Shown one piece after another: positions 3,251-63,010 of a DNA stretch of 64,000 nt. The position numbers and the translations under genes are program-made. How positions within the stretch are numbered: the first letter of the stretch is position 1; each line of letters starts with the position of its first letter. The DNA is from Malacoraja senta (lineage: Eukaryota), in assembly GCA_038087875.1 (NCBI GenBank), contig CM075987.1, positions 28,088,001 through 28,152,000 of the forward strand, given 5' to 3'. A model generated the notes under the pieces. That model ran no database searches and had not been told where the DNA came from. It was given only the letters and a program-made list of their open reading frames with translations.

Positions 3251-4001
3251 CCTTCTTTAGAACCTAGCACGTAGTAAAGGAAAAATGAAGCTATCATTTC
3301 ATATAATTTCTGAAAATTCATATCATACTGAAACTCTGCTTTTCAGACCAAAATTTGTGAAAATATTACACTCCAATACACCTTTGTGAGTCACCTTCAA
3401 TACAGCACCTTGTCGAAGGCCTTTTGAAAATCCTACTGCTTCCCATTGTCCACCCTTTGATTACATATTCAAAAAATCTACTGAATCTAACAAACTCTGT
3501 TTCCCTTTCTTTCCATCTAACTCAGCTGAATTATATTACAAATTATTAGATATCTTATTACTATTTGCTAATGAACAATTCCAGCAGTTTTCCCGAGATA
3601 GATAATTAGCTGTCCTGTAGTTCCCTGCTTGCTCTCCATCCTTTCTTGAGTTGTAATTTTCCAATCATCTGGGGTTGTGACAAAATGTAGGGAATTTTGA
3701 ATGAGCATTGTTTCTGATGATACATCCTATAGAACTGTGAGATTCTATAAAGGTCAGGCTATCTAGCCCAGGTTCAATTACTTTAAGATCCTAAATCAAT
3801 GAGCTTCCTCGTATAAGCATGTAAGAATTGGCGATCAATGCATATGATTGATTAGTATTAAGTTACATTTGTAACTCTTCAATTAGTGGGTAATACATGC
3901 CTGCCTGTAGCAGGACCCTGATATTTTGTCTTGGCCCATTGTTGCACATCATCTTCAGCAAGGTTCCCATTGGAATGGAATTAATTTACTGTTCAACCTA
4001 G

Positions 4002-4043
4002 GTCACATTCACTCCAGAATCATGTCATCCCACCCGTCAGTCA
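4002..4043 (+). CDS. Exon, 42 nt, phase 2-2: SHSLQNHVIPPVS
   Basis: ttcaacctag|G...CA|gtaagc. Confidence 0.55.
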
Positions 4044-7000: not shown

Positions 7001-10000
7001 CCTTTAGTGTCAAAGCTTTGAGCTTTGAGAACTAGCATGAAGCCTTTTATTTCTGTCTTCTTTAGCTCGAATGATGAGATAGCATTTTTTTCTGGTGGAT
7101 CCCTCACAGGGCCTAGAAAAAGGACAAATGGGTGAAGATAAATTATCATCATCCACTATGATGTAAGCAGTGACATGAAGAATGATGATATTGAGGATGA
7201 GCATAATGAAGCAAGATTTGGCATGAGCTCCTACCATATATGCCTCTGTCTTAACTCCTTACACAGCAGATTGGTGGTTGCTTGCATTCTCAGAACCTTA
7301 GATTAACTGAGATAATTTTATCTGAGGAGAATTAGTGTCAGTGAGAATGTATGCGGGAAGCAATAATTCTTTTTCTAAAAGCTTATCAAGAAGAGACCAA
7401 AATAATAATGGGTCAACTTCCCAATGGAAATTGAAGCTACTCAAATCTTTAGAATTCCAGCAATCAAAGTGTGTGAACTCTCACATAGATGTGCAATTTC
7501 CATGTAATTTTCTTGACAGAAAGATATTGCATCGCATCGATTGAAGTGTTCCCATGTCTCTGTAAAAATATATTACAAAAAAACAGCTGTGACTTCAGAT
7601 TCTTCAGTTCTCATTTGTTGGAATGTTAGAAGCCCTTTCTACCTTCTAGGCAATGGTGAAGAGAAAATATTATTTTTGAATTATGCTTATATGGCTATTA
7701 TAGAATCAGCCCAGCACCGTTCAATGGACCTTCCTTTGTGAAACCTTACACTAGCATTTGTGCCAAGTAGTAACTTTTGCATTGTCATTCTGGGGAACTA
7801 AGATGCAGAGCTACAACTCAAGATTTCCCACAATCTGATTACGGCTATTACATTATCCAACTCATTGACCAATGGAGCCTAGACTCTAGTGGAATGTAAT
7901 GCATTCTGCATTATCCAAGCTGCATAAGGATACTATCTCTCAGGATATATTTGTTTCTTTGCTTAATCACATAAAGCACCCAGGAAGCAATGCAGCCAAT
8001 GCTTACATGTTAAGGCTTTATTATTAATGTATTTGTTTTTTTCATTATCTTATCAAATATCTTGGGAAATTAAAATGCACAATACTACTACATTTATCAT
8101 GTTTGAATTGAGTTCTCCTTGTAAGATTTGTAGAACACTTTCCCTTTAAAAGATCTTGAAGGCTGATGAAGCAAGGTGTTTCTTGTATAAAAGAATACGT
8201 AACATTTACTCCTTCATTCAACGTTTGATAGATTTTTGGATATTTCTGATATTTTTTTCAAATGTTACAAGCAACATTTTGTAAGAATGTTGTAATGATT
8301 AAAAAATATTATTTTACAGGAAAAGAACTTCACAGATGAGCTTTATAAAACTTGCTCTCATTTTCATTTTGTTTGTTGAATATGAATAAAGGAACTTGAT
8401 GTGAAAGAAAGTAGCCCTATTTACTCTGATAAATGGAAAGAGAACAACATAGTGTATAGATTTCGCTTGTATCTGAATCAGTTTAGCTATGACTGACAGG
8501 TGTGGTTCATATAAATTCTCACTCAATCCTAAATAAGATGAAAGCCCATGTTATTACAGGGAAAATACTAGTGTGGATAGAAGATTGGCTGAATGGCAGA
8601 AGGCAAAGAGTGGGAATAAAGGGGGCTTTTCCTGGCTGGATGCCAGTGACTAATGGTGTTCCATCGGTGTCTGTGCTGAGTCCGCTACTTTTCACATTGT
8701 ATATTAATGATTTGGATGATGGAATTGATGGTTTTGTGGCCAAGTTTGCAGATGATATGAAGATGGGTGGAGGGGCAGGTAGTGTAGAGCAGTGCTTCTT
8801 AAACTGGTGAATGGTTCACCCAAGGGTGAATGAAATTATTTGGGGGTGAATGGAACTAGAGGGGTGAATGAAGGGTGAATGACTTAATCTATTCAGATTT
8901 TTTTTTTTCTATACTTAAAAAAGGCATTGCCATTAAAGTGGTTAGTAAGCTCTTATTGGTTTTAATGGCAGTGGAGCTGGAAATATGATATGTTTTTTTC
9001 TCTCTACCTATGGTTTTCTAATTTCAAAGTAGCAGGATATTTCCCAAATTTACTGTAATATAATCTTTTAGGGAAGACCATGTTTTTTTTAGCTAGTTTT
9101 CCAAGAAAAAAACTGCAGTAATCAAAGCCCGAAAGGGTAGGATGGGGCTGAAGCTCAGTGTTTAGACGTTGGGATGGTTTTTTATCTAATCAAATGATTT
9201 TCCAACTCCAGTGGTAATTAAACTTCTTTTTTTTTTCCACTCCTAGTTTTCTTTACATATTTTTAGGACGTTCAAAAAGTTGAATAAAATAAACACTTAA
9301 GAAATTAGTTAATTTATGTTTTTTGCTCATGTGACAAAATAAATTATATATAAAATTATACACAAGGGAGAATAAGACAAAAATTACCAAAAAACATAAG
9401 AAAATTTAGTCGAGGGTGAATGAAATTTTGTGATAAAGTCTCAAGGGTGAATGACTGAAATAGTTTAAGAAGCACTGGTGCAGAGGGAAGCAGGGAGTCT
9501 GCAGAATGACTGGTTGGGAGAGTGGGCAAAGAAGTGACAGATGGAATACAGCAGAGCACTTAGGTAGCAGGAGTAAAGGCATAGACTATTTTCTAAATGG
9601 GGACAGGATTCAGAAATTGGAGGTGGAAAGGGAATTGGGAATGCTAGTTGAGGATTTCCAAAAGGTTAATTTGTTGTGGCTGTGGAGGCCAAGTCCTTGG
9701 GTATTTTTAAAGCACAGATTGACAGGTTCTTGATTAGTAAGGGTGTCAAGGGTTACGGCGAGAAGGCAGGAGAATGGCGTTGAGAGGGAAAGATAGATTC
9801 GCCATGATTGAATGGCGGAGTAGACTCGATGGGCCGAATGGCGTAATTCTGCTTCTAGTACATGAATTTATGAATCATTTCAGTGTGTGTGTAAAATCAT
9901 TTTGAATTAACTATTTAGATTTTGATAATCCATAAAATATATTTTAACTTGTTCTGTTTGCTATTTAGATTTTGCAGTTCTGTGCCTATTGATGACACAA

Positions 10001-13000
10001 TGTATTCAGACACTGATGGAGCAACTGACTACCGTCAGATTTACAGGTCAGTGCTAGTGGAAAAAAATGTGAAGTTACTTCGCAATGTGAAATGTCAGTG
10101 TTGAAAAATGTGCTCCCTAATTTATAAATATTAAAATGTTTTGAATATTATCTGAAACATCCGAAAAATCCAGAAGAAATTGTGCAGATTATGTCAATAC
10201 CACACAGCTGATAACAAGCAAATTTTAATTTTGGAAGGTTTTTTTGAATGTTAGAACCAAAATTATATTGACTTTGTTTTCTCCATGGTAATAGCTCAGA
10301 TCTCACCACCACCTTTTCAAGAGCAATTGGGGATGGGCAAGAAATGTTGACGGCACCCAGATCATAAAAATGAATTTAAATTATGGAGGTATAATTAAAA
10401 AGCAAAATTACATTACATTGTATGTGTCAAAGCTGTCAATGGCTTTGAAAAACATGGAGAGACATTCTTTAGCCAACAATTAAATAAAGGATTCATTATC
10501 CTCAAGAACATGATATAATCGCGGCATTTAAGAGGCTGTCAGATAGGCAGGTGGATCTGCAAGGAATGAAGGGATATCAATCACATGCGTGGAAAGGAGA
10601 TTAGTTTATCTTGACATTATATTCGGCATAGATATTATGGGCGAAAGGGACTATTCCTGTGTTTACCTATTTTCTTTTTATATTTGGTGTAGTACAGGCA
10701 GGTAGAAGTTGGTGGTAAAGGTGATAAAATTGACCAATTCTGCATGCGTGCAGGAAGCAGCACAGATGCAGTTGTCGATTTAATGGAGAAAGAGATGGTG
10801 GTGTATGCCGGATTAGGCTCGATACAAGGATTGCTTCACGTAGCCAACACAATGACATGTGTAGCTAGAGCCCATGTGGAGTGCCCGTGACTACTCGTTT
10901 AGTTTATTATTGTCACATGTACCGGTGTACAGCAAAAAGCTTTGGTTTGCGTGCTATCCAGTCAGTCGAGCTACTGCTGTTATTTGTCTCTGAGAGACCA
11001 TCTCCCCAATAGTATCCAAATTGGTTTACCTGTTTGAAAGGGAGATAGCCACAGGAGACTTTGACACAAACTGCCAGCCTTTCCTGGTGGTCACCTGTCT
11101 AACTGGCTGAACCTTTGGTGTTGCCATCACCCTGAAACTATTGCCTACAACTCTCTCTGCCTCCTGTATGGTCCTCAATGTGTCCAACTGCCGCTCCAAC
11201 CAATCCATGTGGTCTGAGATGAGCTGCAGCTGAACACATTTCTTACAGATATAGTCGTGAGGACACTTGACTGCTCCTAGATTGGCGACATTGGACAGGA
11301 TGAGCATACCACTCCACTAAATGCCCCTATAAAACAAAATATAAATCTAGTGGATTTAAGGATAAGTAAACCCTCAACACCTTACCTTGATTTTGTGTGC
11401 CCTTCTCACCGAAGCCTGGTTTTCACCAAACCTTACATTTTGATCTACTAGCAAGCAGTCCTCTTAAAATGAACACGCTGCAAGATTCTGATTCTCTTTC
11501 AGTTGTTGCTCAGGCTGTTGGGCCTGAAAAACATATATATATATATATATATACACACATCAGTAATTATAGAAACATAGAAAATAGGTGCAGGAGTAGA
11601 CCATTCGGCCCTTCGAGCCAGCACCGCCATTTCAATATGATCATGGCTGATCATCCAAAATCAGTACCCTGTTCCTGCTTTTCCCCCCATATCCCTTGAT
11701 TCTGTTAGCCCCGAGAGCTAAATCTAACTCTCTCTTGAAAACATCCAGTGAATTGGCCTCCACTGTCTTCTCTGGCAGAGAATTCCACAGATTTACAACT
11801 CTCTGGGTGAAAACATTTTTCCTCATCTCAATCCTAAATGGCTTACCCATTATTTTTAAACTGTGACCTCTGGTTCTGGACCCCTCCAACATCGGGAACA
11901 TGTTTGGGGTCAAAGACATTTTGAAAGTCCAGATGCACCATATCCACTGGCTCTCCCTTATCCATTCTACTTGTTACATCCTCAAAAAATTCCAGAAGAT
12001 TAGTCAAGCATGATTTCCCCTTCATAAATCCATGCTCGCTTTGACCGATCCCGTCACTGCTTACCAAATACACTGTTATTACATCTTTAATAATCAACTC
12101 AAGTATCTTCCCCACTACCGATGCATGGTTAACTGGTCTATAATTCCCCATTTTCTCTCTACCTCCTTTCTTAAAATGTGGGGTTACATTAGCTACCCTC
12201 AAGTCCACAGGAACTGATCCAGAATCTATAGAACATTGGAAAATGATCCCAAATGCATCCCCGATTTCTAAGGCCACCTCCTTGAGTACTCTGGGATGCA
12301 GACCATCAGGCCCTGAGGATTTATCTGCCTTCAGTCCCAACAGTTTACTTAACACCATTTCCTGACTAATGTGGATTCCCTTCAGTTCCTCCCTCCCACT
12401 AGATCCTTGATCCCCTAGTATTTCTGGGAGTTTGTTTGCATCTTCCTTAGTAAAGACAGAACCAAAATACTTGTTTAACTGTCTGCTATTTCCTTGTTTC
12501 CCATTATAAATTCACCTGTTTCTGACTGTAAGGGACCTACATTTCTCTTCACTAATCTTTTCCTCTTCACATATCTAAAGAAGCTTTACGCCAGACAGGG
12601 ATGAACAATTGTTGTAGTTCATCTACGCGATCTTTAAATCTTTGCCATTGCAACTTCACCGTCAACCCTTTAAGTATCATTTGCCAGTCTATCCTAGCCA
12701 ATTCCCGTCTCATAACATCAAAAGGAATTAGAAAGAATTATGTATTCTTTCTCAGATCAGCTGTACATGCTTTATGCATTTTGTACGCATAATACATCAT
12801 GTTTTCCCTTTTCATCTTTTAGTTCTGGGCCTCGTGACGAATATCCATTTGAAGAAAAAGATAATGGAGACACCAGCACAACAATGCATAGGTCAGGGTA
12901 ACTGGGTTTGTACCTCATGGAGAGTTAGGGTGTCCATTTGCACCCTACAGTGAATTTATTAATTTCTAAGGATTCAAAAATGGGTTGTGTTCTTCTGAAT

Positions 13001-16000
13001 TTCAATTTAAAATGACAATTAATACACAAAATAGTTGTGCTATAACTCCTGGATAAGCGCTCAACTAAGAAAACCAAGCCCAAAACCAAAGTATTATCTC
13101 ACTAAATACACCAACTTACAATAAATGATTCCATATCCCCTCCTCCCTCCACTATCTTCCACTAATCCTAGCCCATCATTAAGCTTGTAACATCTCAAAT
13201 ATCTCCCTTGCACGAGACTGGGATACATTTGCACAGACTACAATTACCAAGAAATACACATACTGCATGTCTTACGTTTCCTTTCTGCCCCCAACTGACA
13301 CTTTCTTCTCCATCAAATCCACCTACTGCCTCGCTCTGCTGCCTCTGACATCTGCTTTACAGCCTGATGCAAACTCTGTCCACGAATTCCTAGCTCTCCA
13401 AATAGCGACGTGATCGATCTCGCTATGATATATATTTTTTCAATAAGTAAAGAGTTAATGTTACCAAAACCAATCTTTCTAAGCACTGATTAAAGCACAT
13501 TTAAATAGTAGGGAATAATTAAAACTTAAAAGTGAAATAAGTAAAATCTTATAACAACTTAGCCCATGTTGAGAATCTTTATTCAAATCAATGGGGACTC
13601 GGATCCAGTTAGTGTTGAATCCTAGAAACTCTAGCTTCATCATTAGACCGTTTGTGTGATGGCATCTGTTTCTTTGCTTGCCAGGGACTGAGTAGGTTTG
13701 CATAAGTTGAAGACTTACTTACCTGGGCATAACTAAGCCTCGCAATTGCTATACATAACTGGTGCGATCCATTGAACTTACATTTCTCTGCTTATTTTAC
13801 CATAATGGAATAAAACATTTTTTGTATTGATGTTTCCAATTAATTTCTTGACAAGATAAACACAGAGTATATTATTTGAAGAAATTAATTATTGTTCAAC
13901 ATTTACAAGTCTGTTATTTTTTCCTACTTAGCATGTTCCATTAATTCAAGGCACTTGAAATAAACTATATCAAAGAAATTTACAAATTAATGCTCTCATC
14001 ATGAAGCTGCCCATTGGAAGGTCACATCCTATAAATGTGGACATGATGGTTTGCAATTCCCATTCAAATTGTTGTTCATACAAACGGACTGCTGTGTGAG
14101 TGTGGTAGTCATACAGTCTGAAAACAGGCCCTTCGGCTCAACTAGCCCATGCCGATCAATATGCCCCATCTATACTAGTTCACGTTATAGGAGTAGAATT
14201 AGGCCATTCGACCATCGACTCCACTCTGTCATTCAATCATGGCTGATCACTGTCTCCTAATCCCATTTTCCTGCCTTCTCCCCATAACCCTCGACACCTG
14301 TTCTAATGAAGAATTTGTCTTCCTTTGCCTTAAAATAATCCACGGACTAGGCCTCCACAGCCCTCTGTGTCAATGAGTTCTGCAGATTAACTACCCTCTG
14401 ACTAGGAGAGGTCCCCCCTCATCCTTCTAAACTCCAGCAAGAAGAGGCCCAGTGTTGTCAAACACTCATCATATGTCAATCCACTCATTCCTGGGATCAT
14501 TCTTGTAAACCTCCTCTAGACCCTCTCCAGAGCCAGCACATCCTTCCTCAGATATGTGGCCCAAATTTGCTCACAGTACTCCAAATACAGCCAGACCAGC
14601 ACCTTATAGAGCCTCAACATTTCATCTGAGTTTATGTATTCTAGTCCTCTTGATTTAATGCTAGCATTGAATTTGCCTTCCTTACTACCGATTCGATTTG
14701 CAAATTAACTTTTTGGGAGTCCTGCACCAGCACTCCCAAGTCTCTTTGCACCTCTGATTTCTGGATTCTCTCTCCAGAGAGTAGGAGTTTGTAGAATCCA
14801 GGTTATGCATACTCAGAATGAGTTCCTCTTTTGCCAAAACTCTATTCTGAACATACTGATTGCAAAATGTATCCCATTTATTTGAAGTAATCTGGTAAAA
14901 TATAAAACTTGTCATATGTTCATTCATTAAGAGTGCTCACATTTCATTTGAAAGATGCTAAAACAATGAATTTTCAATCTATTTTGTGCATAGTTTTGGA
15001 CCAAGCGTGTAATTGATAACTTCATTAAAATTAAACTTATCAATTAATTGATTTTCAATTTGGTAAATGCTGAATTATCTTTTCTGTTTTTAATTTTACT
15101 CTATCTCACTTTGAAATATAGGTCAGGTGAACAACCTTGGCCTGATCAAGAATACTACAGACAGAGACATAACATTGATAGCAGGAAGGAGAACAGATCA
15201 CAGTAAGTGGTTATGACATAACGATTAATCAGTCAGATCTTTTAGAGAATTAAACAATCTTTAGTGCACTTTCTTATATTTATAATGTAATACATTCAGA
15301 AAGATTACCATTAATAAAGTCGACAATCAGATTGTATCTATAACAGCTGAAATGCTAAAACTGATTAATTTCACTGTCTTTATATCACTTTTCCCTATTG
15401 AAATACTTGTTTTTATAATGCAATTTTCTATACACAATATTTCTTTGATGCACAACTATGGAGTTATAGCTGAGCTACTTGTAAATAGCTCTTTTTTTAA
15501 ATTATTCTAAGACTCTTTATCTACATCCTGTTTTGTTCAATACTTACTGATGAATACTGTGATGTATTTATGTTGTTGGGGTCAGCCAACTATGTTGGCA
15601 TCTTTCACATGCAGATGACAGAGAGCTTTCTGCATTTCTGTGACTCTCGTTTTAGTCGAGTAGTTTCTGTCAAAGAATTCAAGAGGTTAAAGATAGAAAC
15701 ATAGAAACATAGAAAATAGGTGCAGGAGTAGGCCATTCGGCCATTCGAGCCTGCACCGCCATTCAATATGATCATGGCTGATCACCCAACTCAGTATCCT
15801 GTACCTGCCTTCTCTCCATACCCCCTGATCCCTGTAGCCACAAGGGCCACATCTAACTCCCTCTTAAATATAGCCAATGAACTGGCCTCAACTACCTTCT
15901 GTGGCAGAGAATTCCAGAGATTCACGACTCTGTGTGAAAAATGTTTTCCTCATCTCGGTCCTAAAAGATTTCCCCCTTATCCTTAAACTGTGACCCCTTG

Positions 16001-52000: not shown

Positions 52001-55000
52001 CTATTCTACTTGTTACATCCCCAAAAAGTTCCAGAAGATTAGTCAAGCATGATTTTCCCTTCATAAATCCATGCTGACTGACCGATCATGTCACTGCTTT
52101 CCAAATGCGCTGCTATAACATCTTTAATAATCGACTCAAGCATCTTCCCCACTAACGATGTAAGGCTAACTAGTCTATAATTCCCTGTGTTCTCTCTTCC
52201 TCCTGTCTTAAAAAGTGGGGTTAACTACCCTTCAGTCCACAGGAACTGATCCAGAGTCTACAGAACATTAGAAAATGGTCATCAATGCATCCACGATTTC
52301 TAGGGCAACCTCCTTGAGTACCCTGGGATGCAGACCATGAAGGGGCTGTCCCACTGAGGCAAACCGACTCAAACTCGCAGCATGGCCGACACGTGGTCCT
52401 AGGAGGTCCTATGAGGTCACTGGAACTCTCCTTCATGCTCGAGGGAAGTTCCCGCATACTCGCGGCCTCAGTTTGGTCGAGGAAAAATTCTCAGCATGTT
52501 GAAAAGTTTTCCGCGAGTAAAAATTGGTCGGCATGGTTCTTTTGAACTCATAGTGCAGTGGAGTGGGGTCGCTATGTAGTTACAGGCAGTCGAGGGCAGC
52601 TGTAGGCAATCTCCTTCACTGACCGGGCATTTTAATTGACTCATTGGAGTTTCAGGACCAAGGAAAAGCGACCGGTAATGTAAAATGCTCGCTAAACTTT
52701 ATTAAAAGTTGTCTGGCTTCTTAAAAATGTCTCCACCCCTCCCCCCCCCCCCACGTTCTCGCCCCGTTCTCGCCCCCTTCTCTCCCCTTCTCTCCCCCTC
52801 TCTTGCCCTCTCTCCCCCTCTCCCCCCCTCTCTCCCCTTCTCTCCCCTTCTCTCCCATTCTCTCTCCCCCCTCCTCTCTAAAGGACTTACCATACAGTGT
52901 GGCAGCTGTCTTTTACCTTCCTCTTCATCGCAGGTGTGAATTTCAGACAGCGCTCCCCGCCTTTGCGATGTGTTTGTGTGTGTGTGTGTGTGCGTGCGGT
53001 CGGTCGATCCAGCTCGCGGTTTCAATGCTGACGATCGATCCAGCTCGACGTTTTTCAGGCGAGTATCCTCGAGCTTGAAGGTCGAAGACAGTCGCTGAAA
53101 GGTTGCGTCAGTGGGGACAGGCCCTTTAGGCCCTGAGGATTTATCTGCCTTCAGTCCTAACAGTTTACCTAACGCCATTTCCTGACTAACGTGGATTTCC
53201 TTCAGTTCCTCCCTCCCGCTAGACCCTCGGTCTCCTAGTATTTTGGGGAGATTATTTGTGTCTTCCTCAGTGAAAACGGAACCTAAGTAATTGTTTAACT
53301 GTTCTGCTATTTCCTTGTTTCCCATTATAAATTCACCTGTTTCTGACTGTAAGGGATCTACATTTGTCTTCACTAATCTCTTCCTCTTCACATATCTATA
53401 GAAGCTTTAACAGTTTTTATATTCCCCGCAAGCTTTTTTCATGCTCTATTTTCCCCCTCTTAATTAACACCTTTGGCAAGTCATCATGTAATTATGCTTC
53501 ACATGAGGATAGTGTTCTAACATCATACAATTTACTTACCTAGTGAGAACATATAGCACAATATCTTTCAACTATTAATGTTAAAGCAGACGTAAGTCAA
53601 ACAATATGTCAATTAATATTGTACAAGTTAGGGTCACATGTAGATTTTTTTTTAATTTCAATTTTTTACTTATATTTTCAATGTTTTATATATGTTTCTT
53701 TGGTCTGCAATTTTCCCACATTTAATCTTTCTACTGCTAAAATTCTGTTCATAATTCTGATAATGTTTCTTGTTTATTTTGTTTTCTCAGTAATATGAAG
53801 GAGTCTCCATCTCCTGATATGTAAGTATACTGAGGTTCTTCAGACAGATTTGAAAATACTCCTTAGAGAAAACTCTGGAGATTGGAGAAAAAACTCTAAT
53901 CTCTTTAGGAAAGAGATTAAACTGGTGTCAGGGGATATGGGGAGAAGGGAGGAGAATGGAGTTTGAATGGAGAGATAGATCAGCCATAATAGAATGGCGA
54001 AGTAGACAATGGACCAAATGGCCTAATTCTACTCCGATCACTTATGGCCTTATGTTCCCTGTGCCATGTGCTATTGGATATAGAGATAGCAGATTCAAAT
54101 TCTTAAAGCAGTGAGTTCCGTGGAAAGTGGGATCTGTACAGGCCAGATAGAATAATAGAGATACGACCCATGTCCTTACAGGAGAGTTTGTTAGTGTTGT
54201 GGGAGGAGGTTTAAACCAATTTAGCAGGAAGATAGGCACAGAAAGGTTGCACTGAAAAGGAGTAAGATATGGTACAGAAAGCAGTGAAAGAGTAAAACAG
54301 CATTAGAAAAGGATATTGAAAATTCTTAAGATCAGACCAAAGAATTTTGCAAGAAGATATAGGAAGGGTCTGTAATGCAGGCATGTAAAGGCAAACAACA
54401 AATTAAACAGTTGGTGTACTGCAGAACCTGGTAATCTTGGTTAAAAAAAAAGGACAGGACTGAGTTCTAAATATTACTGTAGACATAGTATTCATGAATG
54501 TCAAAGAAGAGGAGAAGTAGAGCAAGTGGCATTATTTAGAGTCATAGTCATACTGTGTGGAAACAGGCCCTTCAGCCCACCTAGCCCACACTGGCCAACA
54601 TGTCCCATCTACACTCATCCCTGCCTACATTTGGCCCATATCCCTCTAAACTTGTCGTATCCATGTACCTGTCTAAATGTTTCTTAAATGTTGCAATAGT
54701 CCCTGCCTCAACTACCTCCTCCAGCAGCTCATTCCATAAAATCACCGCCCATTGTGTAAAAATGGTTACCCCTCGGGTTCCAATTAAATCTTTCCACCCT
54801 CACCTTAAACCTATGCCCTCTGCTTCGAGATTCCCCTACACCGGGCAAGATACTCTGTGTGTCTACCCCATATATTCCTCTCATGATTTTGTACACGTCT
54901 ATAAGATTCAGTCACTGAAAGTAAACATCAGGTCCAGCAGGCAGAGAAGAAAGACATTCCTTCAATTGACCAACATTGCGGGAGGATTTGAGTTTAGGAG

Positions 55001-58000
55001 CAAGAAGGTCCTACTGCAGTTGTAGGGCCCCGGTGAGACCGCACCTGGAGTATTGTGTGCAGTTTTGGTCTCCTAATTTGAGGAAGGACATTCTTGCTAT
55101 TGAGGGAGTGCAGCGTATGTTCACGAGGTTAATTCCCGGGATGGCGGGACTGACATATGATGAAAGAATGGGTCGACTGGGCTTGTATTCACTGGAATTT
55201 AGTAGGATGAGAGGGGATCTTATAGAAACATATTAGATTCTTAAAGGATCGGACAGGCTAGATGCAGGAAAAAATGTTCCCAATGTTGGGGGAGTCCAGA
55301 ACCAGGGGTCACAGTTTAAGAATAAGGAATAGGCCATTTAGGACTGAGATGAGGAAAAACCTTCAAACTCAGAGACTTGTGAATCTGCCACAGGAGGCAG
55401 TGGAGACCAAATCACTGGATGTTTTCAAGAGAGAGTTAGATTTAGCTCTTAGGGCTAAAGGAATCAAGGGATATGGGAAAAAAAGCCAAAATGGGGTACT
55501 GATTTTGGATGATCAGCCATGATCACAATGAATGGAGGTGCTGGCTCGAAGGGCCGAATGGCCTACTCCTGCATATATTTTCTATGTTTTCTATGTTTCT
55601 ATGTACCCCTCATCCTCCTGTGCCTTATGGAATAGAGTCCTAGCCTGCTTAACATCTCCCTATAGCTCAGTCCCTCGAGTCCTGGCAACATCCTTGTTAA
55701 TCTTCTCTACACCCTTTCAGGCTTGACAACATGTGCCCTATAACAAGATGCCCAAAATTGAACACAATACTTTAAATACGGTCCCGCCAACGTCTTAAAC
55801 AACCATTTCATAAGGAGAATATTACTGGAGAGAGGGAGGAATGATTGTGCATAAAATATATATTTTCAGATTTAAAAAGGCAATAGATTTTTGATTACCC
55901 TATGGCAAATATTCTATAAGCTGTCAACATGCGAAGGAAAGTGAGGAGCAAATTTTTAAGGATGGTCCAAAAAGTCCTGTGACCATAGTGGTTTATCCTA
56001 ATATAGACCACTTTAAAATTATTACGATGCTCTGCATTGTAAAATTATGTGCAATTCAATAAAAAGTATTTAGGTATACAGTGTGGAATGTTCACCTTAA
56101 GTCTGGATTTGTGATAGATCAATTGAGAAATTCATTACTAAGAAACATCAACAACTCCATTGTCATTGTATCATGGGACAACCAGAAGTCAATTGTGAGA
56201 TGAATGTACTTTTTTCTGTCCAGAATCTCCTGTGTAACCATGTTCCCAGCTGCAAATGCCATCATCCCGAAATTTCTGATGTTCTTTTGTGTCTTTAGGA
56301 TGAGAGCATCTCCGTCTAGACGTAGGTGAGTACAAAACACTGAGTCATTGGGAAGCACATTCCCATCTAGTATGTGAGCATTATTATCCAGTTATTATTC
56401 GGTCATGGTAATAAAGAAATCAATCCGCACATTTGTGATCCAGAATATTATTATAGATGGGGCCATAATGTTTCATAATGAAGGGAGATGATACGATGCT
56501 CCCACAACTAAATATATGACCAATTGATGGCTATTTGTGTCAGCAAATGATTATAGTCACAAAAACTCAACAAAGTGCATTTATTTACACTGTGCCTTAA
56601 ATGTTGCAAAAGCTCTGAATGAATTTAATATATGTGTCATCAAATAGAATCTGTAACAGATATACCGAAGGAGTTATTCGGGAGTACATAAATTGCTTAA
56701 CAGACTTTAAGGGATGTCTTAAAAGAGGAAGGCCTGAGAATTCATCCCCTTTTTGCAGCATGATACTTGTTGTTCAATTATGTCAATTTAATACATTTCA
56801 AAGGCCAACTAAGAGTCTCCAACATTTTCTGTTTTTGTTTCTGATTTAGAATCAGACTGATATTCCAAAGAGGGATGGGGGTCAGTGATTTCTCTCAAAG
56901 AAGTAATCTTGATTCCATTAGCACAAACATAATTCAGTTTAAAAAGATGTACAAAAACACTTTTTTTTAAGGATATTGGGATGAGGATAGGTGATTGTGA
57001 GTGGGATATTTGTTATACTGATTGTATTGGGAAGGGTGATTATAGGGTGATGGGTTGTATATATGACTAAGATACTGTATAGTATATGAGGGTTTTTTCT
57101 TTTCATTTTTTTCATTTTTTCTCTCTTTTTTTGTATGGCTTTGTAAATATTTGATTAGTGTATAAATGTAAATAATTTGGTGTACATATAGCTGCTGGTG
57201 TACATATAGCTGCTAAATTTGTATAAGATAATTATAAGCAGTTGAATAAGGGGTGGGAATTAATAAGCTTTGGCTTCTTCCTGCTCCTTTTCGGACACAT
57301 ACGATTTCATTTATTTATAAATATTGTTTATGACACATAAATATTCTTGTTTTGTTTTATTGTATGCTGTTTCACACTTGATTTTTATTCTTTTATTCTG
57401 TTCGAAATAAAGAATTAAATTAAAAAAAAATAATAATAATAATAATAAAGCCAGTGGAAATCGCAGAAAAAACTCTTCAATGGGCGGATTAATGGAAGAT
57501 AGTTGCGTTTATTATGGACAATTATATCCCAGGCCATCACTACAGAAATACATCAGAGTACAGACCCAGGCCAGATCTCTCACAGGTGCTTCATCACTAA
57601 TCTTTTCTCCTTCCAAATAGTCCCAAGCAGAAAGATGTGGACCATGTTCTTGATCAAAACCATGCAATGTTGGTGCCACGGAAAAGTTAGCAGCAATGAT
57701 CCATGCCCTAAAAATTGGATCACCTACAGCAAATCTCTCAAGTCACTGGGAAAATAGCACCATGCGCTCTCCGCAAAATCTTACAAATTCACTGAAGGGT
57801 TAACAAGTCTATCAGTATCTTCTCCCAGGCCAAAGTCCCGAAACCTGAGGCCCTAGTTACACACAGTCTCCTCCATTGGAGAAGCCTTGTCCTTTGCATG
57901 GCCAACGCCAGACTCATAGACACTCCTTTCGGACCTCTGGTCAAAGCTTCCTTGAAAAAAGATAACTTTCCCTCTGACACTTGGAATTCTCTGGCCTATG

Positions 58001-61000
58001 TCTGTAAAGCGTAATTCACACCAGCAATAATTCCAATAAGGTTTCAGTAGGAGATTATTATAACACATGCAGATAGACTTTAAATAAATACTTTGTGAGC
58101 CTTAGAACATGAGAAAATTATTTCTTATTCCTTCTAAAAGTCAAAACCAGGTGTTATTTCCTTCTTGATGTTCTCCATTACAGGCAGACAAAAAGTGGCA
58201 TTTTTTGACAGACTGACATTACATACGTTTCATATTTTAGATAAGCAGAAAATCAAACATAAATATTCACAAAATTATTGTATTTTTTCCTTTATTTTAT
58301 TCTGATTTGTGTAGTCCAACCTATGGTTTTAGCTCGGATGCATTACCATTTTCTACATGGTAAGTGTGATAACCCTGCCTATCAATTATCTTATAATAGT
58401 AAAGAAGGTTACAAAATGCTGAAGTAACTCAACGGATCAGGCAGCATCTCGTTGGCTAGGGACAGTGTAATCCCAAGAGGAATAGATTGATGCAAACTGT
58501 GGAGTGATTAAATGACTCTGGAGGAAGTGGGGTGGGAGGGGGAGGGAGAGGGAGGAGTGAGGGTGGCGTAGAAGTGTGTAGAAGTTAACTAAAATTAGAG
58601 AATTCAATGTTCATACTGCTCGGTTGTGAGCTACCAAAGCAAAATATGATGTTTCTGTTCCTCCAATATGCGCATGGCCTCACTCTGGCAATGGAGGAGG
58701 CTCGGGACAAAAAGGTCAGAATGGGAATGGGAAGGGGCGTTAAAGTGGTTTAGCAACTGGGAGGTCCAGTAGGCCTCGGTAGACCCATCGTAAGTGTTCA
58801 GCAAAACAGTCGGCGAGTCTAGGCTTGGTCACCCCGATGTACAGGAGCCCACATCAGGAACACTGGATGCATTAGATGAGGTTAGAGGAGGTGCATGTGA
58901 ACCTCTGTCTCACCCGTGTACTGGTAGCAGAAAATCTGAATGTGTAGGGATAGTTAAAGTTCCAATCAAGACACATGCTGAATGATGCTGCTTTTCCAAT
59001 GTGTTGATGGAATTCCAGTTATTCACGCAAAGATCAATTTTTAATCACTGTTAGTGTCTTGTAGATATTTGAAGGTTTGAGGGAACCAGGTGGCATGTCA
59101 CGCACACACTGCAATTAGGATATAATAGACCAAGGGGGACCCGTTGGGTCCCGCCCATCCCCTCAACGCGCCGTTGCAGGGGTGGGTGGGGGGGCCTGCG
59201 GCGTTACCCACACACTGCAAATTAGGATATAATGTAGTGGGTAAAATATAAAACAAACTACAGATGCTGGAAAATTGAAAAAAATGAAATAATGCTGGAA
59301 ATACTCAGCAGTTCTGTGTCTGTAAAAAGAGAAACAGTTAATATTTCAATTCCAGGACCCTTCTTCAGAACTAGGTAAGAGAGAAGTTAAGTTTGTTTTT
59401 AGTAGCAAGAAGGTCATGGAGGAATGGGTAAAAACAAAATAATATCTTTGACAGGATGAGACCAAATCAGTAAATGTAGAAGTAGGAGTCACGGTTGGTA
59501 TTAGATTATGCTCTGTATTGTTCATAGCTATCAGACATGCCCAACAGGCCAGACACATAGAAAAAGAAAAACTCAGCTGAAACAATGACCGGGTATGACA
59601 GAGTAAAAAATAAAGACAATTACCTAAAGTTGGAGAAAATATTGAGTCTAGATAGATACATGATGCCCAGACAGAAGATGAGGTGTTGTTATTCAAGCTG
59701 TCGTAACAGTGCAGAAGATCACAGGTAGAAAGGTCAAAGTGGAAGTGGGATCGTAAATTAGAGTGGCAGGCACCCAGAAGCTTATGGTCAGTCCTCTGGA
59801 TTGAATGCAAGTCTTTAAACAGTGAGCAAAGCAGATGAGAGTTCCCTTATTCTCAGAGTTAAAAGAGGAAGCACGGGCATTAAAGGAGTAAGGATGAGAA
59901 ATGATATATTGTGCTTGGTGCTGAGGAAAATAATGCAGAATAGAGAATTATATAGGCGGTGTAGTGTAGGCTAAATTATATAGAGAATTATGTAGGCTAA
60001 ATAGTGGTAAGTGGCAACTTACAGAAGATGAATAAAGATTGGAATATACTTGTTTTTCCAAACCTAGTTATAAGGTCATAAGAAATAGTAGAATTAGGCC
60101 ATTCGGCCATCAAGACTATGACATTCAATCATGGCTGATCTATCTCTCCCTCCTAACCCCATTCTCCTGCCTTCTCCCCATAACCTCTGACACCTGTACT
60201 AATCAAGAATCTATCTATCTCTGCCTTAAAAATATCCACCGACTTGGCCTCCACACTCTTCTGTGGCAAAGAATTCCATAGATTCACCACCCTCTGACTA
60301 AAGAAATTTCTCCTACTCTTCCTAAAAGAACGTCCTTTAATTCTGAGGCTATGACCTCTAGTCCTAGACTCCCCCACTAGTGGAAACATCCTCTCCACAT
60401 CCACTCTATCCGAGCTCACAATATTCCAAATGCGGCCTTACCAGCGCCTTATAGAGCCTCAACAATTTGACACAACAGTTTGACTGCCTGACCGCGGGAG
60501 AGGAAGCAAGAAAGAGATAAAACTTTTTGCATACAAGCCAACTTGAAATAAATGCTAGCATTGAGTTTGTTTTCTTTACTACTGATTCGACTTGCAGATT
60601 CACTTTTTGGGAATCCTGCACCAGCGCTCCCAAATCCCTTTGCAACTCCAATTTCTGGATTCTCACCACATTTAGAAAATAGTCTATGCCTTTATTCCTA
60701 CTACCAAAATGCATGACTCCACACTTTGCTACACTATATTCCATCTGCCACTTCTCTGCCCTCTCTCCCAACCCGTCCAAGTCCTGCAGAGTCCCTGCTT
60801 TCTCTGCACTACCTGCCCTTCTAGTTATGTTCGTATCATCCGTAAACTTGGCCACGAAGCCTTCAATCCACTTGTCCAAATCATTAATATACAACGTGAT
60901 GATTAGCGGCCCCAGGACCGACCCTGGGGAACTCCGCTAGTCACTGGCAGCCGACCAGAAAAAGCCCCCTTTATTGCCACTCTTTATCTTCTGCCATCCA

Positions 61001-63010
61001 GCCAACCTGCTATCCATGCTATTATCTGCCCTTTGATACCGTGGGCTCTCATCTTCCTACGCAGCCTAATGTGCGGCACCTTATCAAAGGCTTTCTAAAA
61101 ATCTAAGTAAAATCTACTTTGTCTGTCCTGCTATTTACTTCTTCAAAGAATTCCAGCAAATTTGTCAAGCAAGACCTCCCCTTCACAAAGCCATGCTGAC
61201 TTCAGCCTATTTTATTGTGAACTTCTAAGTACTCCATAACCTTATCCTTTATAATGGACTTTAAATTTTACCAACCATCGAAGTCAGACTAACAGGCCTA
61301 TAGTTCCCACTAATCTGCTTTGCTCCCTTCTTGTGCAGCGGGGTAATTTTGGCAATTTTCCAATCATCTGGATCCATTCCTGACTCTAGTGATTCCTGTA
61401 ATATCACTGTCAATGCCTCCACAATCTCTAAAGCCACCTCTTTCAGAACCCCAGGGTGCAGTCCATCTTGTCCAGGTGACTTATCCACCTTCAGCCCTTT
61501 CAGCTTCCCAAGCACCTTCTCCCTGGTAATAGCCACTCCACTAACTTCTACCCCCTGACTCGCTTGAATTTCAGGCACGTTGCAGGTGTCTTCCACTGTG
61601 AAGACTGATGCAAAAAAGTTATTCAACTCCTCTCTCATTTTTTTATTCCCCATTATCACTTCTCCTGCATCATACTCCAGCGGTCCAACGTCCACTCTTG
61701 CCTCTTTCTTGCTCTTTATATAACTGAAGAGACTCTTGCTATCCTCTTTTATATTATTGGCTAGCTTACCTTTGTATTTCATCTTTTCTCCCCATGTTTT
61801 CTTTTTAGTAACCCTCTCTTATTCTTTAAAAACATCCCAATCCTCTGGCTTCCACACCCCTCTGCCCACCTTCCTGTCATTCCAATATAATGTATAACGC
61901 TGAATATTTAGCTCCAGGCTCCGATCCTCTTGCAGCCAAGTCTCTGTAATTCCACAACATCATACCTACCAATCTCTAACTGTGCTACACGCTCATCCAC
62001 TTTGTTTCTTATACTACGCGCATTCAAATACAACACCTTTAATTCGGTATTCACCTCCCTTCTCACACTGGTCCCGATTTTACCCGACCTTACTCTCTTA
62101 CCCCTGATTGAACTTTCTGTCACATTAATTTGGGAGACTTCTGTAACATTTCCTGCACTCTCTTCCCCTTTAACTCCATCCTTACACTTCCAATTCACTG
62201 ACCCCCCCCACCCATTATTTAGTTTAAAGTTCTATCTACTGCCTTAGTTATACGGATTGCCACCAGTCTGGTTCTGGTCAGGTTCAAGTGGAATCCACCC
62301 TGTCCATGTAATATAACATAATATGACTTTATAACACATTGGATCTATAATCTTTTGGCAATATTGTAACTGCTGTCTTCCCAACCCACCTTTATCCATT
62401 ATATTTTGTGATTCACACACATTTATTTCCACCTGTTGCCAAAAGAGCAGCAATCACAAGGATGCGGAATTTCAGACTTCTCAAAGAAAGAGCAAGATAA
62501 TGAAATAGGAAAGGGAAAGTTGAATACAAGAATAAACTAAAGAATAGAAAGACAGACTATAAAAGCTTCCAGAGATATGTAAAGGAAAACAATAACAATA
62601 GTTATTGTGGACTATTTAGGTATATTTCTTGAAGATGATGTGGAAAATTTATTGGTAATTGGAATAATGAATGGATCTTCAAAATATGAGGAGCTCATAG
62701 ACATTGCGATTAGCACAAAATTAGTATTGGATAAATTAATGGTACTGCAAGGCAATACAGTATAACCGCAAGACCCTTTGACCTTCCATCCAAAGATTGG
62801 AAAGAGGTGGCTGTGGAGACACTACCAGAGATCAGAACTGAACCTGGGTGAAGCCATGTTGCTCCAATTTATTTACACTCATCATTTTTGTTTCCAGGTT
62901 TAGATTCTGTAGCGAGAATGCTGGCAATATTTGTTGCAGTAACTATTGTTTCTCCTTTCTAACAGTTTATTTGCAAGTAGTAGGATATGTGCTAACTATC
63001 AACCTTTACA
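4002..63010 (+). CDS. Multi-exon gene (probably partial at both ends) built of symmetric phase-2 short exons/microexons; Ser-Pro-rich low-complexity protein of unknown identity
   Basis: About 18-20 AG/GT-bounded segments, most with pyrimidine tracts. All but the last candidate are multiples of 3, read 1 nt + codons + 2 nt, and are stop-free when joined. Several are mutual paralogs. Confidence 0.8.
4655..4860. mobile_element. tRNA-derived SINE head interrupted by a Penelope-like terminal-repeat fragment with a 16-bp duplication (ctgctgtttaacagtg at 4681-4696 and 4840-4855)
   Basis: Direct repeat seen; the insert matches the AGACACAAAA..GGAGTAACTCAGC family found elsewhere in the window. Confidence 0.55.
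5873..6693 (-). mobile_element. Non-autonomous Helitron
   Basis: On the minus strand: A|TCTATATAACT...GGGACCC-AAC-GGGTCCC hairpin (5884-5900)...CTAG|T. No TSD. Internal 30-bp and ~40-bp tandem repeats. Confidence 0.75.
7066..7131 (+). CDS. Candidate exon, 66 nt, phase 2-2: SNDEIAFFSGGSLTGPRKRTN (3' boundary uncertain; alternative donor after 7162)
   Basis: Strong acceptor ttttatttctgtcttctttag. The donor GG|gtgaag is weak; the stronger AT|gtaagc after 7162 gives 97 nt. Confidence 0.45.
8520..9870 (+). mobile_element. CR1 LINE 3' fragment split by a hAT element
   Basis: ILVWIEDWLNGRRQRV...YINDLD...KFADD, resuming after 9478. Confidence 0.85.
8790..9477. mobile_element. Non-autonomous hAT (Charlie-like) DNA transposon
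   Basis: Perfect 16-bp TIR CAGTGCTTCTTAAACT; 8-bp TSD gtgtagag/gtgcagag; subterminal GGGTGAATG repeats. Confidence 0.85.
9969..10046 (+). CDS. Exon A1, 78 nt (or 69 nt from 9978): FCSSVPIDDTMYSDTDGATDYRQIY
   Basis: ctatttag|A...AG|gtcagt; paralog of A2 and A3. Confidence 0.75.
11567..12723 (-). mobile_element. CR1 LINE, truncated and internally deleted
   Basis: KSSGPDGLHPRVLKE, NYRPV and GFMKGKSCLTNLLEFFE motifs; CR1 3' UTR and tail. Confidence 0.9.
12823..12891 (+). CDS. Exon A2, 69 nt: SGPRDEYPFEEKDNGDTSTTMH
   Basis: ttttcatcttttag|T...AG|gtcagg; GP..E..F...DN pattern shared with A3. Confidence 0.75.
15122..15202 (+). CDS. Exon B1, 81 nt: SGEQPWPDQEYYRQRHNIDSRKENRS
   Basis: aatatag|G...CA|gtaagt; paralog of B2. 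Confidence 0.8.
15696..20147 (-). mobile_element. Near full-length CR1 LINE: ORF1 (CxxC zinc finger + SGNH esterase, 19754-18823) and ORF2 (APE endonuclease + RT, 18808 to ~15900), both frameshifted
   Basis: CDAC/CDKC; GDSIVR, GTND and DGLH esterase motifs; LNARS, MGDFN and SDH endonuclease motifs; GVPQGSVLGP and FADD RT motifs; (CTATGTTT)n tail. Confidence 0.95.
19815..19870. repeat. 15-bp tandem repeat (gccaaagactctcga, ~3.7 copies) in the CR1 5' UTR
   Basis: Seen directly. Confidence 0.9.
20260..20325 (+). CDS. Exon C1, 66 nt: SPSRNSRTFEPPDTSIKMYVS (alternative in-frame donor after 20313)
   Basis: ggaatatag|G...AG|gttaga. Confidence 0.7.
21567..22274 (+). repeat. ~700-bp duplicate of 15369-15695 + 20148-20524, containing exon C
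   Basis: Near-identical sequence; the first copy is split by the CR1. Confidence 0.95.
22013..22075 (+). CDS. Exon C1', 63 nt: SPRISRTFEPPDTSSKMHVS (duplicate of C1)
   Basis: ggaatatag|G...AG|gttaga; differs from C1 by an in-frame 3-nt indel plus substitutions. Confidence 0.7.
22275..23785 (-). mobile_element. CR1 LINE ORF2 fragment (endonuclease to start of RT), different subfamily
   Basis: YYRPPN, VGDFNFP, SSDHN, KSPGPD and NYRPVSLTS motifs in the 567-aa ORF. Confidence 0.9.
24920..24997 (+). CDS. Exon A3, 78 nt: AFTPGPPEEGVFGGQDNDSNGLPIC
   Basis: poly-T tract then ag|G...AG|gtcagt. Confidence 0.8.
25836..25856 (+). CDS. Microexon D, 21 nt: DVLSPS
   Basis: tttttctttttaactag|G...CA|gtaagt. 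Confidence 0.7.
26170..26475 (+). mobile_element. CR1 3' end with (CTATTGT)n tail
   Basis: FSQRVVSLWNSLP motif, UTR and tail. Confidence 0.85.
28160..28477. mobile_element. Cluster of Penelope-like terminal-repeat fragments in both orientations
   Basis: Repeated GCTGGAGTAACTCAGC...GGTGACGTTTCGG units and their reverse complements. Confidence 0.55.
28478..28842 (-). mobile_element. CR1 3' end
   Basis: ESRTRGHSLRIKG motif and tail. Confidence 0.85.
29636..29719 (+). CDS. Exon B2, 84 nt: FPNRIWLDQDNCRQSYVIDTNTQDDRS
   Basis: aatgtag|A...CC|gtaagt; W.DQ...RQ...ID...RS shared with B1, and downstream intronic taatcagtcaga also shared. Confidence 0.8.
31240..31302 (+). pseudogene. Exon C2, a diverged C-type copy (SLQKRRNIEQHEASSNRNTP) with the original acceptor lost; possible in-frame 45-nt use from 31258
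   Basis: ttttggaata|atca versus ggaatatag|gtct in C1; ends CCCAG|gtagta. Confidence 0.5.
32911..32934 (+). CDS. Microexon, 24 nt: TRQSPIL
   Basis: tttctttgctctgtttcag|A...CG|gtaagt. Confidence 0.75.
33690..33716 (+). CDS. Microexon F, 27 nt: LPPSSSPM
   Basis: gatttgcttcctcag|G...TC|gtgagt. Confidence 0.75.
36077..36406. mobile_element. Palindromic (MITE-like) element with ~70-bp inverted arms and a central short retroposon ending in (AAG)n on the minus strand; second copy at 39210-39539
   Basis: The arm ttttaccagaacaatataacaaccagaacacttga... recurs as its reverse complement; the insert is flanked by gtaagtaagt. Confidence 0.65.
36788..36814 (+). CDS. Microexon F', 27 nt, identical copy of F
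   Basis: Lies within the 3.1-kb tandem duplication and has the same splice sites. Confidence 0.7.
40027..42575 (-). mobile_element. 5'-truncated CR1 of the same young subfamily as 15696-20147
   Basis: 420-aa RT ORF nearly identical to the first copy; small internal deletions. Confidence 0.95.
43149..43181 (+). CDS. Microexon H1, 33 nt: IKREPSPLHD
   Basis: tttttattag|G...AC|gtaaga. Confidence 0.75.
44130..44165 (+). CDS. Microexon H2, 36 nt: VLRKPSPSMLD
   Basis: tttttattttag|G...AA|gtaagt; paralog of H1. Confidence 0.75.
45803..50934 (-). mobile_element. DIRS1-type tyrosine-recombinase retrotransposon; complete structure, ORFs disrupted
   Basis: gag-like region (~50696-49300); RT/RNase H 49099-47768 (YLDD, TDVS, INYLEL, VDNTTA); methyltransferase-like 47853-47416 (IDLFAS, YAFPPF); tyrosine recombinase ~47300-46320 (KSHSTRAAST, AAGW...F.KYY); ITRs and ICR present. 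Confidence 0.95.
46030..46140. repeat. DIRS internal complementary region (ICR)
   Basis: Reverse complement of the left terminus (45803-45881) joined to the reverse complement of the right terminus (~50898-50934). Confidence 0.9.
52341..53125. mobile_element. Non-autonomous PIF/Harbinger-like MITE
   Basis: TIR AGGGGCTGTCCCACTGA / AGGGCCTGTCCCCACTGA; 3-bp flanks tga/tta at a CR1 tca site; internal CT-rich and GT microsatellites. Confidence 0.7.
53791..53820 (+). CDS. Microexon, 30 nt: NMKESPSPD
   Basis: ttttgttttctcag|T...AT|gtaagt. Confidence 0.75.
54540..55800. mobile_element. Minus-strand CR1 3' fragment with a plus-strand CR1 3' end (~54905-55603) inserted into it
   Basis: VRPHLEYCVQFWSP on the + strand with a (CTATGTTT)n tail; minus-strand CR1 continues on both sides. 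Confidence 0.8.
56299..56325 (+). CDS. Microexon, 27 nt: MRASPSRR
   Basis: ttcttttgtgtctttag|G...AG|gtgagt. Confidence 0.75.
56960..57449 (+). mobile_element. Probable L1/Tx1-type LINE 3' UTR with AATAAA and A/(AAT)n tail
   Basis: T-rich UTR, aataaa, and an aaaaaaaaa(taa)n tail. Confidence 0.4.
58315..58359 (+). CDS. Exon, 45 nt: PTYGFSSDALPFST
   Basis: long T tract...gtgtag|T...TG|gtaagt. Confidence 0.7.
60065..62230 (-). mobile_element. CR1 LINE, fragmented (endonuclease start to 3' end)
   Basis: YLNARSIRNK, KSPGQDGLHP, NYRPVSLTS, FTDD and ESRTRGH motifs. Confidence 0.9.
62898..63010 (+). CDS. Candidate exon, 113 nt, phase 2-1: FRFCSENAGNICCSNYCFSFLTVYLQVVGYVLTINLY (Cys-rich plus hydrophobic segment)
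   Basis: tttttgtttccag|G...A|gtaagc; open in the phase-2 frame. Confidence 0.35.

Follow-up and report, generated by a model that had tools for sequence, protein, structure and literature searches.

Can a run of short DNA segments, most of them too small to be seen as open reading frames (ORFs), be the exons of one real gene? This question is raised by a stretch of 64,000 nucleotides (nt) from the skate Malacoraja senta (contig CM075987.1, positions 28088001-28152000, in an assembly of 1.94 Gb), which is referred to as the window. The original prediction, read from the letters of this stretch alone, proposed about 20 short exons and microexons that all share one phase and together encode a serine- and proline-rich (SP-rich) disordered protein. 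Our best explanation, to which we assign a probability of about 88%, is that the segments in the window are coding exons 5-21 of a 41-exon gene on the + strand, and the sequence matches described below identify this gene as the ortholog of Leucoraja erinacea LOC129712172. All positions are given in window coordinates, in which negative numbers lie before the window, and L-numbered pieces denote the fetched flanks of 100 kb per side (for example, L015 ~4247-4314 corresponds to window ~98247-98314). The composition of the window is vertebrate-like (40% G+C, CpG observed/expected ratio of 0.35), and the depletion of CpG, the G+C content and the many ORFs of long interspersed nuclear element (LINE) type on the - strand together mark it as intron-rich vertebrate DNA.

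The listed segments and their match to a skate protein

All of the segments listed in the original prediction are present on the + strand, bounded by AG and GT, with lengths divisible by three and of phase 2-2 (one leading and two trailing bases), and most of them show a pyrimidine tract and a donor of the GTAAGT or GTGAGT type. An additional segment of 45 nt (62966-63010) ends at the last coordinate given in that prediction. When 16 segments were joined by a script, the reading frame ran through 262 codons with no stop, as had been claimed, and the other two frames of the same join contain 37 and 5 stops. To what extent could such features arise by chance? In a crude splice-site scan for AG..GT pairs of 18-90 nt, with cut-offs of at least 4 for the acceptor and at least 6 for the donor, lengths divisible by three were found in 15 of 30 pairs on the + strand versus 8 of 17 on the - strand; with both cut-offs at 4, they were found in 22 of the 60 strong pairs on the + strand. 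This enrichment is modest, and splice sites and open frames alone are therefore no proof of exons. Short AG..GT open stretches are thus common, and the segments might be chance open stretches in intronic or intergenic DNA that were chosen by eye; the failure of two of the segments described below would fit such an explanation.

The decisive evidence comes from a protein of another species. In a HMMER scan of 1.84 billion representatives, with the 61-residue open frame around exon 6 as the query, a match was found to XP_055516398.1 (783 residues, E = 2.1e-05), with the alignment covering the exon-derived portion of the query. This Leucoraja erinacea protein is annotated as 'uncharacterized protein LOC129712172 isoform X2' and belongs to a set of four isoforms, X1-X4 (XP_055516397.1 to XP_055516400.1). 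A tblastn search with L. erinacea X1 (794 residues) gave collinear hits on the + strand from 41.4 kb before to 52.9 kb after the window, with 705 of 788 aligned residues identical (89.5%). We further compared each segment, along with 200 shuffles of it, with the proteins of four species (Leucoraja, Pristis, Mobula and Pristiophorus). For 17 segments, representing 16 distinct peptides, the matches follow one another in order along the L. erinacea protein, and in each case no more than 1 of 200 shuffles scores as well. It is this ortholog match that, by sequence, proves the segments to be exons. Because 41 collinear exons are 89.5% identical to a protein that was annotated independently in a different species, the chance explanation is already refuted at the sequence level for the 17 segments, and it retains practically no probability for the locus. 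The spliced product corresponds, in the same exon order, to the RefSeq models of the related skate, which bears out the multi-exon gene that had been proposed. The gene is not new to annotation, as NCBI models already exist under the name 'uncharacterized'. These results also indicate that a reading of raw DNA without any tool can recover a real stretch of 17 exons, most of which are too short to be seen in a track of ORFs.

Two of the proposed exons find no match in any of the four species and are thus unsupported. The 42-nt segment at 4002..4043 (+), located inside the 32-kb intron 4, has weak splice sites, and 128-196 of 200 shuffles score as well; the 66-nt segment at 7066..7131 (+), which had been listed with a question mark, has a good acceptor, and 124-200 of 200 shuffles score as well. 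A 45-nt segment at 31258..31302 (+), which had been put in brackets, gave a mixed outcome. It is open, bounded by AG and GT and divisible by three, and its peptide aligns at the expected position with Pristis residues 200-219 (65% identity over 20 residues, E = 0.13 in a local search, 0 of 200 shuffles as good); however, it has no pyrimidine tract at the acceptor, 155 of 200 shuffles score as well against Leucoraja, and its peptide is missing from all four L. erinacea isoforms. This segment may be a weak or decaying exon.

Exon map and orthologs

After refinement of the splice sites, the predicted coding sequence consists of 41 exons with 2418 nt and encodes 805 amino acids, uninterrupted by inner stops and closed by a terminal stop codon. 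It spans ~161 kb on the + strand and extends beyond the window on both sides, by ~41 kb before its start and ~55 kb after its end; the window thus holds only 17 of the 41 exons (exons 5-21). Introns 1-3 are of phases 1, 0 and 1, and all of introns 4-40 are of phase 2, a run of 37 that begins after the membrane-helix exon and continues to the end of the coding sequence. All of the 36 internal tail exons (exons 5-40) are divisible by three and of phase 2-2. Phase 2 is the rarest intron phase, and 1-1 is the exon class usually linked with exon shuffling. Exons of 21-36 nt make up 15 of the 41 and total 408 of the 2418 nt.

All of the exons lie on the + strand. Four of them precede the window: exon 1, a hydrophobic signal-like start (-41437..-41380; L007:8563-8620), exon 2 (-32816..-32638; L008:7184-7362), exon 3 (-26585..-26546; L009:3415-3454) and exon 4, the membrane-helix exon (-22252..-22093; L009:7748-7907). 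The first exon of the cytoplasmic tail is exon 5 (78 nt, 9969..10046), for which, as for exon 6 (69 nt, 12823..12891), none of the 200 shuffles is as good against Leucoraja, Pristis and Mobula. The same holds against Leucoraja, Pristis and Pristiophorus for exon 7 (81 nt, 15122..15202) and for exon 12 (84 nt, 29636..29719), of which exon 7 is a weak paralog and which carries the tail motif best conserved from rays to sawshark. Exon 8 (66 nt, 20260..20325) is a tandem duplicate of exon 9, supported by the ortholog match and by duplicated flanks, and exon 9 (63 nt, 22013..22075), also with an ortholog match, differs from it by 3 nt in length. Exon 10 (78 nt, 24920..24997) is equalled by no shuffle against Leucoraja and Pristis and by 1 of 200 against Pristiophorus. 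Two microexons, exon 11 (21 nt, 25836..25856) and exon 13 (24 nt, 32911..32934), have their residues in place in the L. erinacea protein, with 1 of 200 shuffles as good in each case.

Exon 14 (27 nt, 33690..33716), a microexon, is supported by the ortholog match and the shuffle test, and exon 15 (27 nt, 36788..36814) is an exact copy of it with identical splice sites. The ortholog match also supports the microexons 16 (33 nt, 43149..43181), whose unit type is amplified many-fold in Mobula, and 18 (30 nt, 53791..53820), as well as exons 20 (45 nt, 58315..58359) and 21 (45 nt, 62966..63010), the last being a 15-residue block present in three of the four L. erinacea isoforms. For microexon 17 (36 nt, 44130..44165), no shuffle is as good against Leucoraja, Pristis and Mobula, and 1 of 200 is against Pristiophorus; microexon 19 (27 nt, 56299..56325) is in place in the L. 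erinacea protein, with 0 of 200 shuffles as good. Beyond the window lie exons 22-24 (L012:3448-3471, 4181-4207 and 9601-9624), exon 25 (L013:9200-9226), exons 26-28 (L014:491-517, 3585-3611 and 3828-3914), exons 29-34 (L015:555-581, 2019-2180, 3701-3772, 6655-6726, 8258-8320 and 9108-9179), exons 35-38 (L016:1179-1241, 2383-2454, 3028-3099 and 5110-5172) and exons 39-41 (L017:965-1033, 2810-2881 and 5481-5505; exon 41 closes with the stop codon).

Two of the downstream exons are unusual. The 27-nt exon 23 has a GC donor (AAG|gcaaga), the sole non-GT donor among the 40 introns. The 87-nt exon 28 is unlike the other parts of the tail, being hydrophobic and Cys-rich with a weak donor, and it could encode a second membrane-dipping or lipid-anchored cassette.

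Other orthologs are Mobula hypostoma LOC134359957 and Pristis pectinata LOC127582304, along with unnamed models in Pristiophorus japonicus and Narcine bancroftii. The membrane-helix exon is 98% identical with that of Leucoraja, and a search with it gave 84-94% identity in Pristis, Pristiophorus, Mobula and Narcine (E = 1e-17 to 1e-22). It is single-copy in the M. senta genome; a weak second match on the same contig (24048370-24048489, 33% identity, E = 0.037) is probably due to chance. The distant orthologs share the N-terminal fifth and a few tail motifs, covering 22% of the query. Matches of exons 7, 10, 12 and 17 are kept from rays to sawshark, with 0-1 of 200 shuffles as good, and no match outside skates was detected for several tail exons. 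The searches with the whole protein and with the helix exon, which were of limited reach, found only elasmobranch proteins, all of them unnamed or named by composition. This agrees with the lineage restriction that had been raised as a possibility.

The predicted protein

What kind of protein does this gene encode? The predicted order is the signal-like exon 1, an ectodomain of 109 residues, the membrane helix of exon 4 and a tail of 672 residues. The ectodomain is 25% Ser+Thr and has three N-x-S/T sites and three Cys. Exon 4 encodes a Cys pair, a short charged stretch, a hydrophobic helix of 26 residues and then basic residues. The tail contains 110 S, 61 P and 57 R, is also rich in D, E and Q, and has 16 S/T-P sites and 24 Tyr. 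In the Atlas model of the L. erinacea protein, the mean predicted local distance difference test score (pLDDT) is 0.37 and the predicted template-modelling score 0.15. The low pLDDT, the compositional bias toward S, P, R, D, E and Q, and the absence of a Pfam domain are indirect signs, which suggest that the tail is disordered. The description as an SP-rich disordered protein thus fits the tail but not the whole protein, which is predicted to have a signal peptide and a single-pass membrane helix, with the tail in the cytoplasm. The matches of the Atlas model to other structures, all with template-modelling scores below 0.35, were discarded as meaningless for a disordered model. A 14-3-3-type R-x-x-S-x-P motif was considered as a general feature of the array units and rejected, only two such sites being present in the M. 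senta tail.

The protein was not recognised in the original prediction, and it bears no family label in our searches either. In Pfam, the skate protein matches no family at E <= 1, the sawshark, devil-ray and sawfish orthologs match none at E <= 0.01, and eight single-exon peptides also gave no match; no relative of the protein was found in the PDB, and its RefSeq name is 'uncharacterized'. No paper naming LOC129712172, LOC134359957 or LOC127582304 was found in a literature search, and a search on elasmobranch microexons, tandem exon duplication and intrinsic disorder returned only unrelated papers. Might the locus belong nonetheless to a known, named family, with the tail as its fast-evolving part? 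Serine/arginine repetitive matrix 2-like (SRRM2-like), afadin-like, TMEM154, EVI2B and TMEM119 are the candidates, suggested by the automatic names on some Pristiophorus isoforms and by the look-alikes in the Atlas feature search, which are small single-pass glycoproteins with scores of 0.82-0.88. However, the isoforms of one Pristiophorus gene carry four different names (SRRM2-like, afadin-like, heat shock protein DDB_G0288861-like and serine-rich adhesin-like), as expected of compositional matches, and Atlas scores below 0.9 are only leads by the tool's own calibration, with just one of the ten best family-bearing matches sharing the family of the top one. Domains of the named families, such as RA, FHA, DIL and PDZ of afadin, were not found, as Pfam gave no family for the sawshark protein or for the other orthologs that were searched. 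We therefore regard membership in a named family as very improbable. Identities as SORBS-like or AbLIM-like were dropped after the ortholog was found.

The product of the gene would be a type I glycoprotein of the plasma membrane or an endomembrane. The conserved helix may dock the protein to a partner or to itself, and the disordered cytoplasmic tail would present short linear motifs in series (acidic Tyr motifs and proline-directed Ser sites), whose number and mix could be set by the microexons that are included. Our best guess is hence a putative membrane scaffold with a splice-tuned motif valency.

Tandem duplication and evolution of the tail

It had been predicted that exons of one phase could be duplicated without a frameshift, and neighbouring exons are indeed tandem duplicates. 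Exons 8 and 9 lie in a duplicated unit of ~700 bp that is 91-94% identical between the copies; in a self-BLAST search, the flanks at 20148-20524 and 21900-22274 show 93.9% identity. Exon 14 was doubled by a tandem duplication of 3.1 kb on the + strand (33358-36449 and 36457-39583, 98.5-98.9% identical in self-BLAST). The L. erinacea isoforms have one copy of this unit, and the duplication is either recent and specific to the M. senta genome or an artefact of the assembly. Further downstream is an array of eight live exons of 63 or 72 nt, which differ in length by 9 nt and have nearly identical splice sites. A ninth unit (L015 ~4247-4314, window ~98247-98314) is dead, with its acceptor changed from AG to AA and a 4-nt deletion; its counterpart is live in L. 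erinacea and part of the protein models there. Besides the second copy of the 27-nt exon 14 and this dead unit, M. senta differs from L. erinacea by one extra pair of 72+63 nt in the array. In Mobula (devil ray), the amplified unit has 11-12 residues and resembles exons 16 and 17, and in Pristiophorus (sawshark) units of 9-10 residues are amplified. As read from these alignments, single exons or pairs of exons were duplicated in tandem as the tail grew, and skates, devil ray and sawshark differ in the units that they amplified.

Cassette use in predicted isoforms

The predicted isoforms of relatives differ by whole cassettes, in agreement with the proposal that exons of this gene can be skipped. 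In Pristiophorus, the isoform names go up to X41; 24 are in the cluster and 15 were compared, all of them predicted models. Among these 15 isoforms there is no substitution column and there are 17 present/absent blocks, of which 14 are of 9-10 residues, one is of 21 residues and two are shorter splits of the alignment. Of the predicted Leucoraja isoforms, X3 is without the ortholog of exon 21 and X4 without that of exon 28, and the predicted Mobula isoforms likewise differ by whole blocks. With three lineages each amplifying a different unit, and with isoform names reaching X41 in one relative, the locus could provide a natural test bed for the birth, independent splicing and loss of microexon arrays, and for a splicing-tuned number of motifs in the tail of a membrane protein.

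Several observations weigh against the 41-exon coding gene or its proposed working. A word-index protein search with the 61-residue open frame around exon 5 gave no match, and the proteins of the relatives are computational RefSeq models. Four sequencing runs compared over 9900-29800 covered the repeats only, with no exon joints, and are silent on expression; a search for RNA runs with a query of 5.25 kb, a length at which a short RNA is hidden, listed none. Function, topology, glycosylation and the use of motifs are read from sequence only, and recognisable patterns in the tail are sparse (the two R-x-x-S-x-P sites and one pattern like an immunoreceptor tyrosine-based inhibitory motif, ITIM). 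In the downstream array, the exons are also open in a second frame, the first, second and third codon positions of the eight units have 9, 10 and 7 variable columns, respectively, and the summed pairwise ratio of nonsynonymous to synonymous differences (pN/pS) is ~1.7, giving no sign of purifying selection at the codon level. The variable columns of the array amount to 22 of 63 in the exon, versus 93 of 194 in the upstream flank and 36 of 70 in the downstream flank, so that the exon varies only modestly less than its surroundings.

These array data could be explained by a gene whose exons and splicing are real but whose tail is mostly a selectively near-neutral filler, in which repeated exons drift, duplicate and die, and only the part with the ectodomain and membrane helix and a few tail motifs matter. 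The pN/pS and the equal variability across codon positions favor this explanation, and so do the dead unit, the variation in number and type of units among both close and distant relatives and the several tail exons without a detectable match beyond skates. On the other hand, the frame stays open through 36 tail exons and 672 residues, the length changes in the array are all multiples of three, the splice sites are intact in every live unit, and exons 7, 10, 12 and 17 are matched from rays to sawshark. It is thus unlikely, though less so than a named family, that most of the tail is filler.

Comparison with known genes

The titin PEVK segment is a disordered segment encoded by short same-phase exons (~25-28 codons) that are tandem-duplicated and differentially spliced. 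It is rich in P, E, V and K, whereas the skate tail is rich in S, P, R, D and Q, and its cellular place and function are different; homology is not expected. Transmembrane adaptors such as LAT, PAG and SIT have a short ectodomain, one helix, a juxtamembrane CxxC for palmitoylation and several Tyr-based SH2 motifs in a disordered tail. The skate protein has one predicted helix and a putatively disordered tail with 24 Tyr, but it has an ectodomain of 109 residues, no CxxC after the helix and a single ITIM-like pattern, and no homology was found.

A third comparison is with the micro-exon genes (MEGs), for which DeMarco et al. 2010 is reportedly the cited source. Schistosome MEGs have very small symmetric exons, produce pools of variants by alternative splicing and evolve fast, as described in PMC4350168. 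The skate gene shares with them a coding region with tiny symmetric exons, fast evolution and variants that differ by a few residues, which here are predicted isoforms. It differs in that there is no sequence relationship and the phylum is another (MEGs are platyhelminth genes), and in that MEGs encode small secreted proteins, in contrast to a predicted membrane protein of 805 residues whose variable part would be cytoplasmic. Set beside the MEG description of mostly very small symmetric exons, 36 of the 41 skate exons are symmetric, but exons of at most 36 nt account for only 408 of 2418 nt.

A tentative and rather doubtful extension is that the gene is a vertebrate counterpart of MEGs, restricted to elasmobranchs, with a tail that is a programmable array of microexon motifs. 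Under this scenario, each microexon would be one short linear motif; with every exon in phase 2, different motif exons could be amplified in different lineages, and a cell could select from dozens of cassette combinations. The products would be membrane scaffolds of variable motif valency, whose near-invariant helix may dock to a partner.

A parallel to the 41-exon gene is found in human genes for mostly disordered proteins, in which same-phase symmetric exons, internal tandem duplication, repeated short motifs and alternative splicing occur together, as reported by Schad et al. (2013; PMC3632108). The skate gene also shows a long run of symmetric exons of one phase, homology between neighbouring exons (8/9, 14/15 and the array of 8+1 units) and short repeated motifs; its tail is probably disordered, and the symmetric exons are alternatively spliced in the predicted isoforms. 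It is unlike the genes described there in its phase 2-2, its run of 36 exons and its many microexons. The disorder criterion in that study is more than 70% predicted disorder, whereas the skate tail was judged by pLDDT, composition and the absence of Pfam families. The gene is automatically annotated in relatives, and its architecture is of a known kind in an extreme form; it represents an extreme and clean case of the principle that tandem duplication of same-phase exons gives rise to disordered proteins.

Repeats and neighbouring genes

The introns of the gene contain several mobile elements. A LINE with endonuclease and reverse transcriptase (15694..20148, -), recognised by its ORFs, by Pfam Exo_endo_phos and RVT_1 and by its repeat structure, lies in the intron between exons 7 and 8, where it is inserted in, and splits, one copy of the duplicated unit of exons 8 and 9. 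One LINE family is present at 15694-18220 and 40015-42507 (-), with 93.5% identity over 2.5 kb and ORFs for endonuclease and reverse transcriptase, and a different, third LINE is found at 22133-23854; all three are antisense in the introns of the gene. In intron 17, a retroelement at 46822-49108 (-) has an RVT_1 ORF (E = 6.8e-18) beside a phage-integrase SAM-like ORF (E = 3.5e-07), by which it is classified as a tyrosine-recombinase (DIRS-like) retroelement. Just 5' of exon 10 lies a short repeat of very high copy number (~24766-24835). In four runs of other organisms, contig depth at this repeat is in the hundred-thousands, and many loose ends fall at 24766/24767 and 24821/24835. A scan of CpG islands for a promoter gave islands at many sites, partly within repeats.

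Upstream of the gene, ~93.6 kb before the window, an exon of GluN1 was found at L002:6304-6447 (+), encoding the last membrane helix and the following segment (E = 2.4e-25 to PDB GluN1 chains). Its position and strand make the GluN1 gene the same-strand upstream neighbour. An initial assignment of this exon to a kainate receptor (GRIK2/3) proved wrong, as it matches GluN1. In addition, ~55.8 kb before the window there is a splice-bounded open segment (L006:4162-4317, -) with weak similarity to the C-type-lectin-like UL45 family in Pfam (E = 0.0047, below the cut-off); this segment could belong to a gene on the - strand that is located between GluN1 and the microexon gene.

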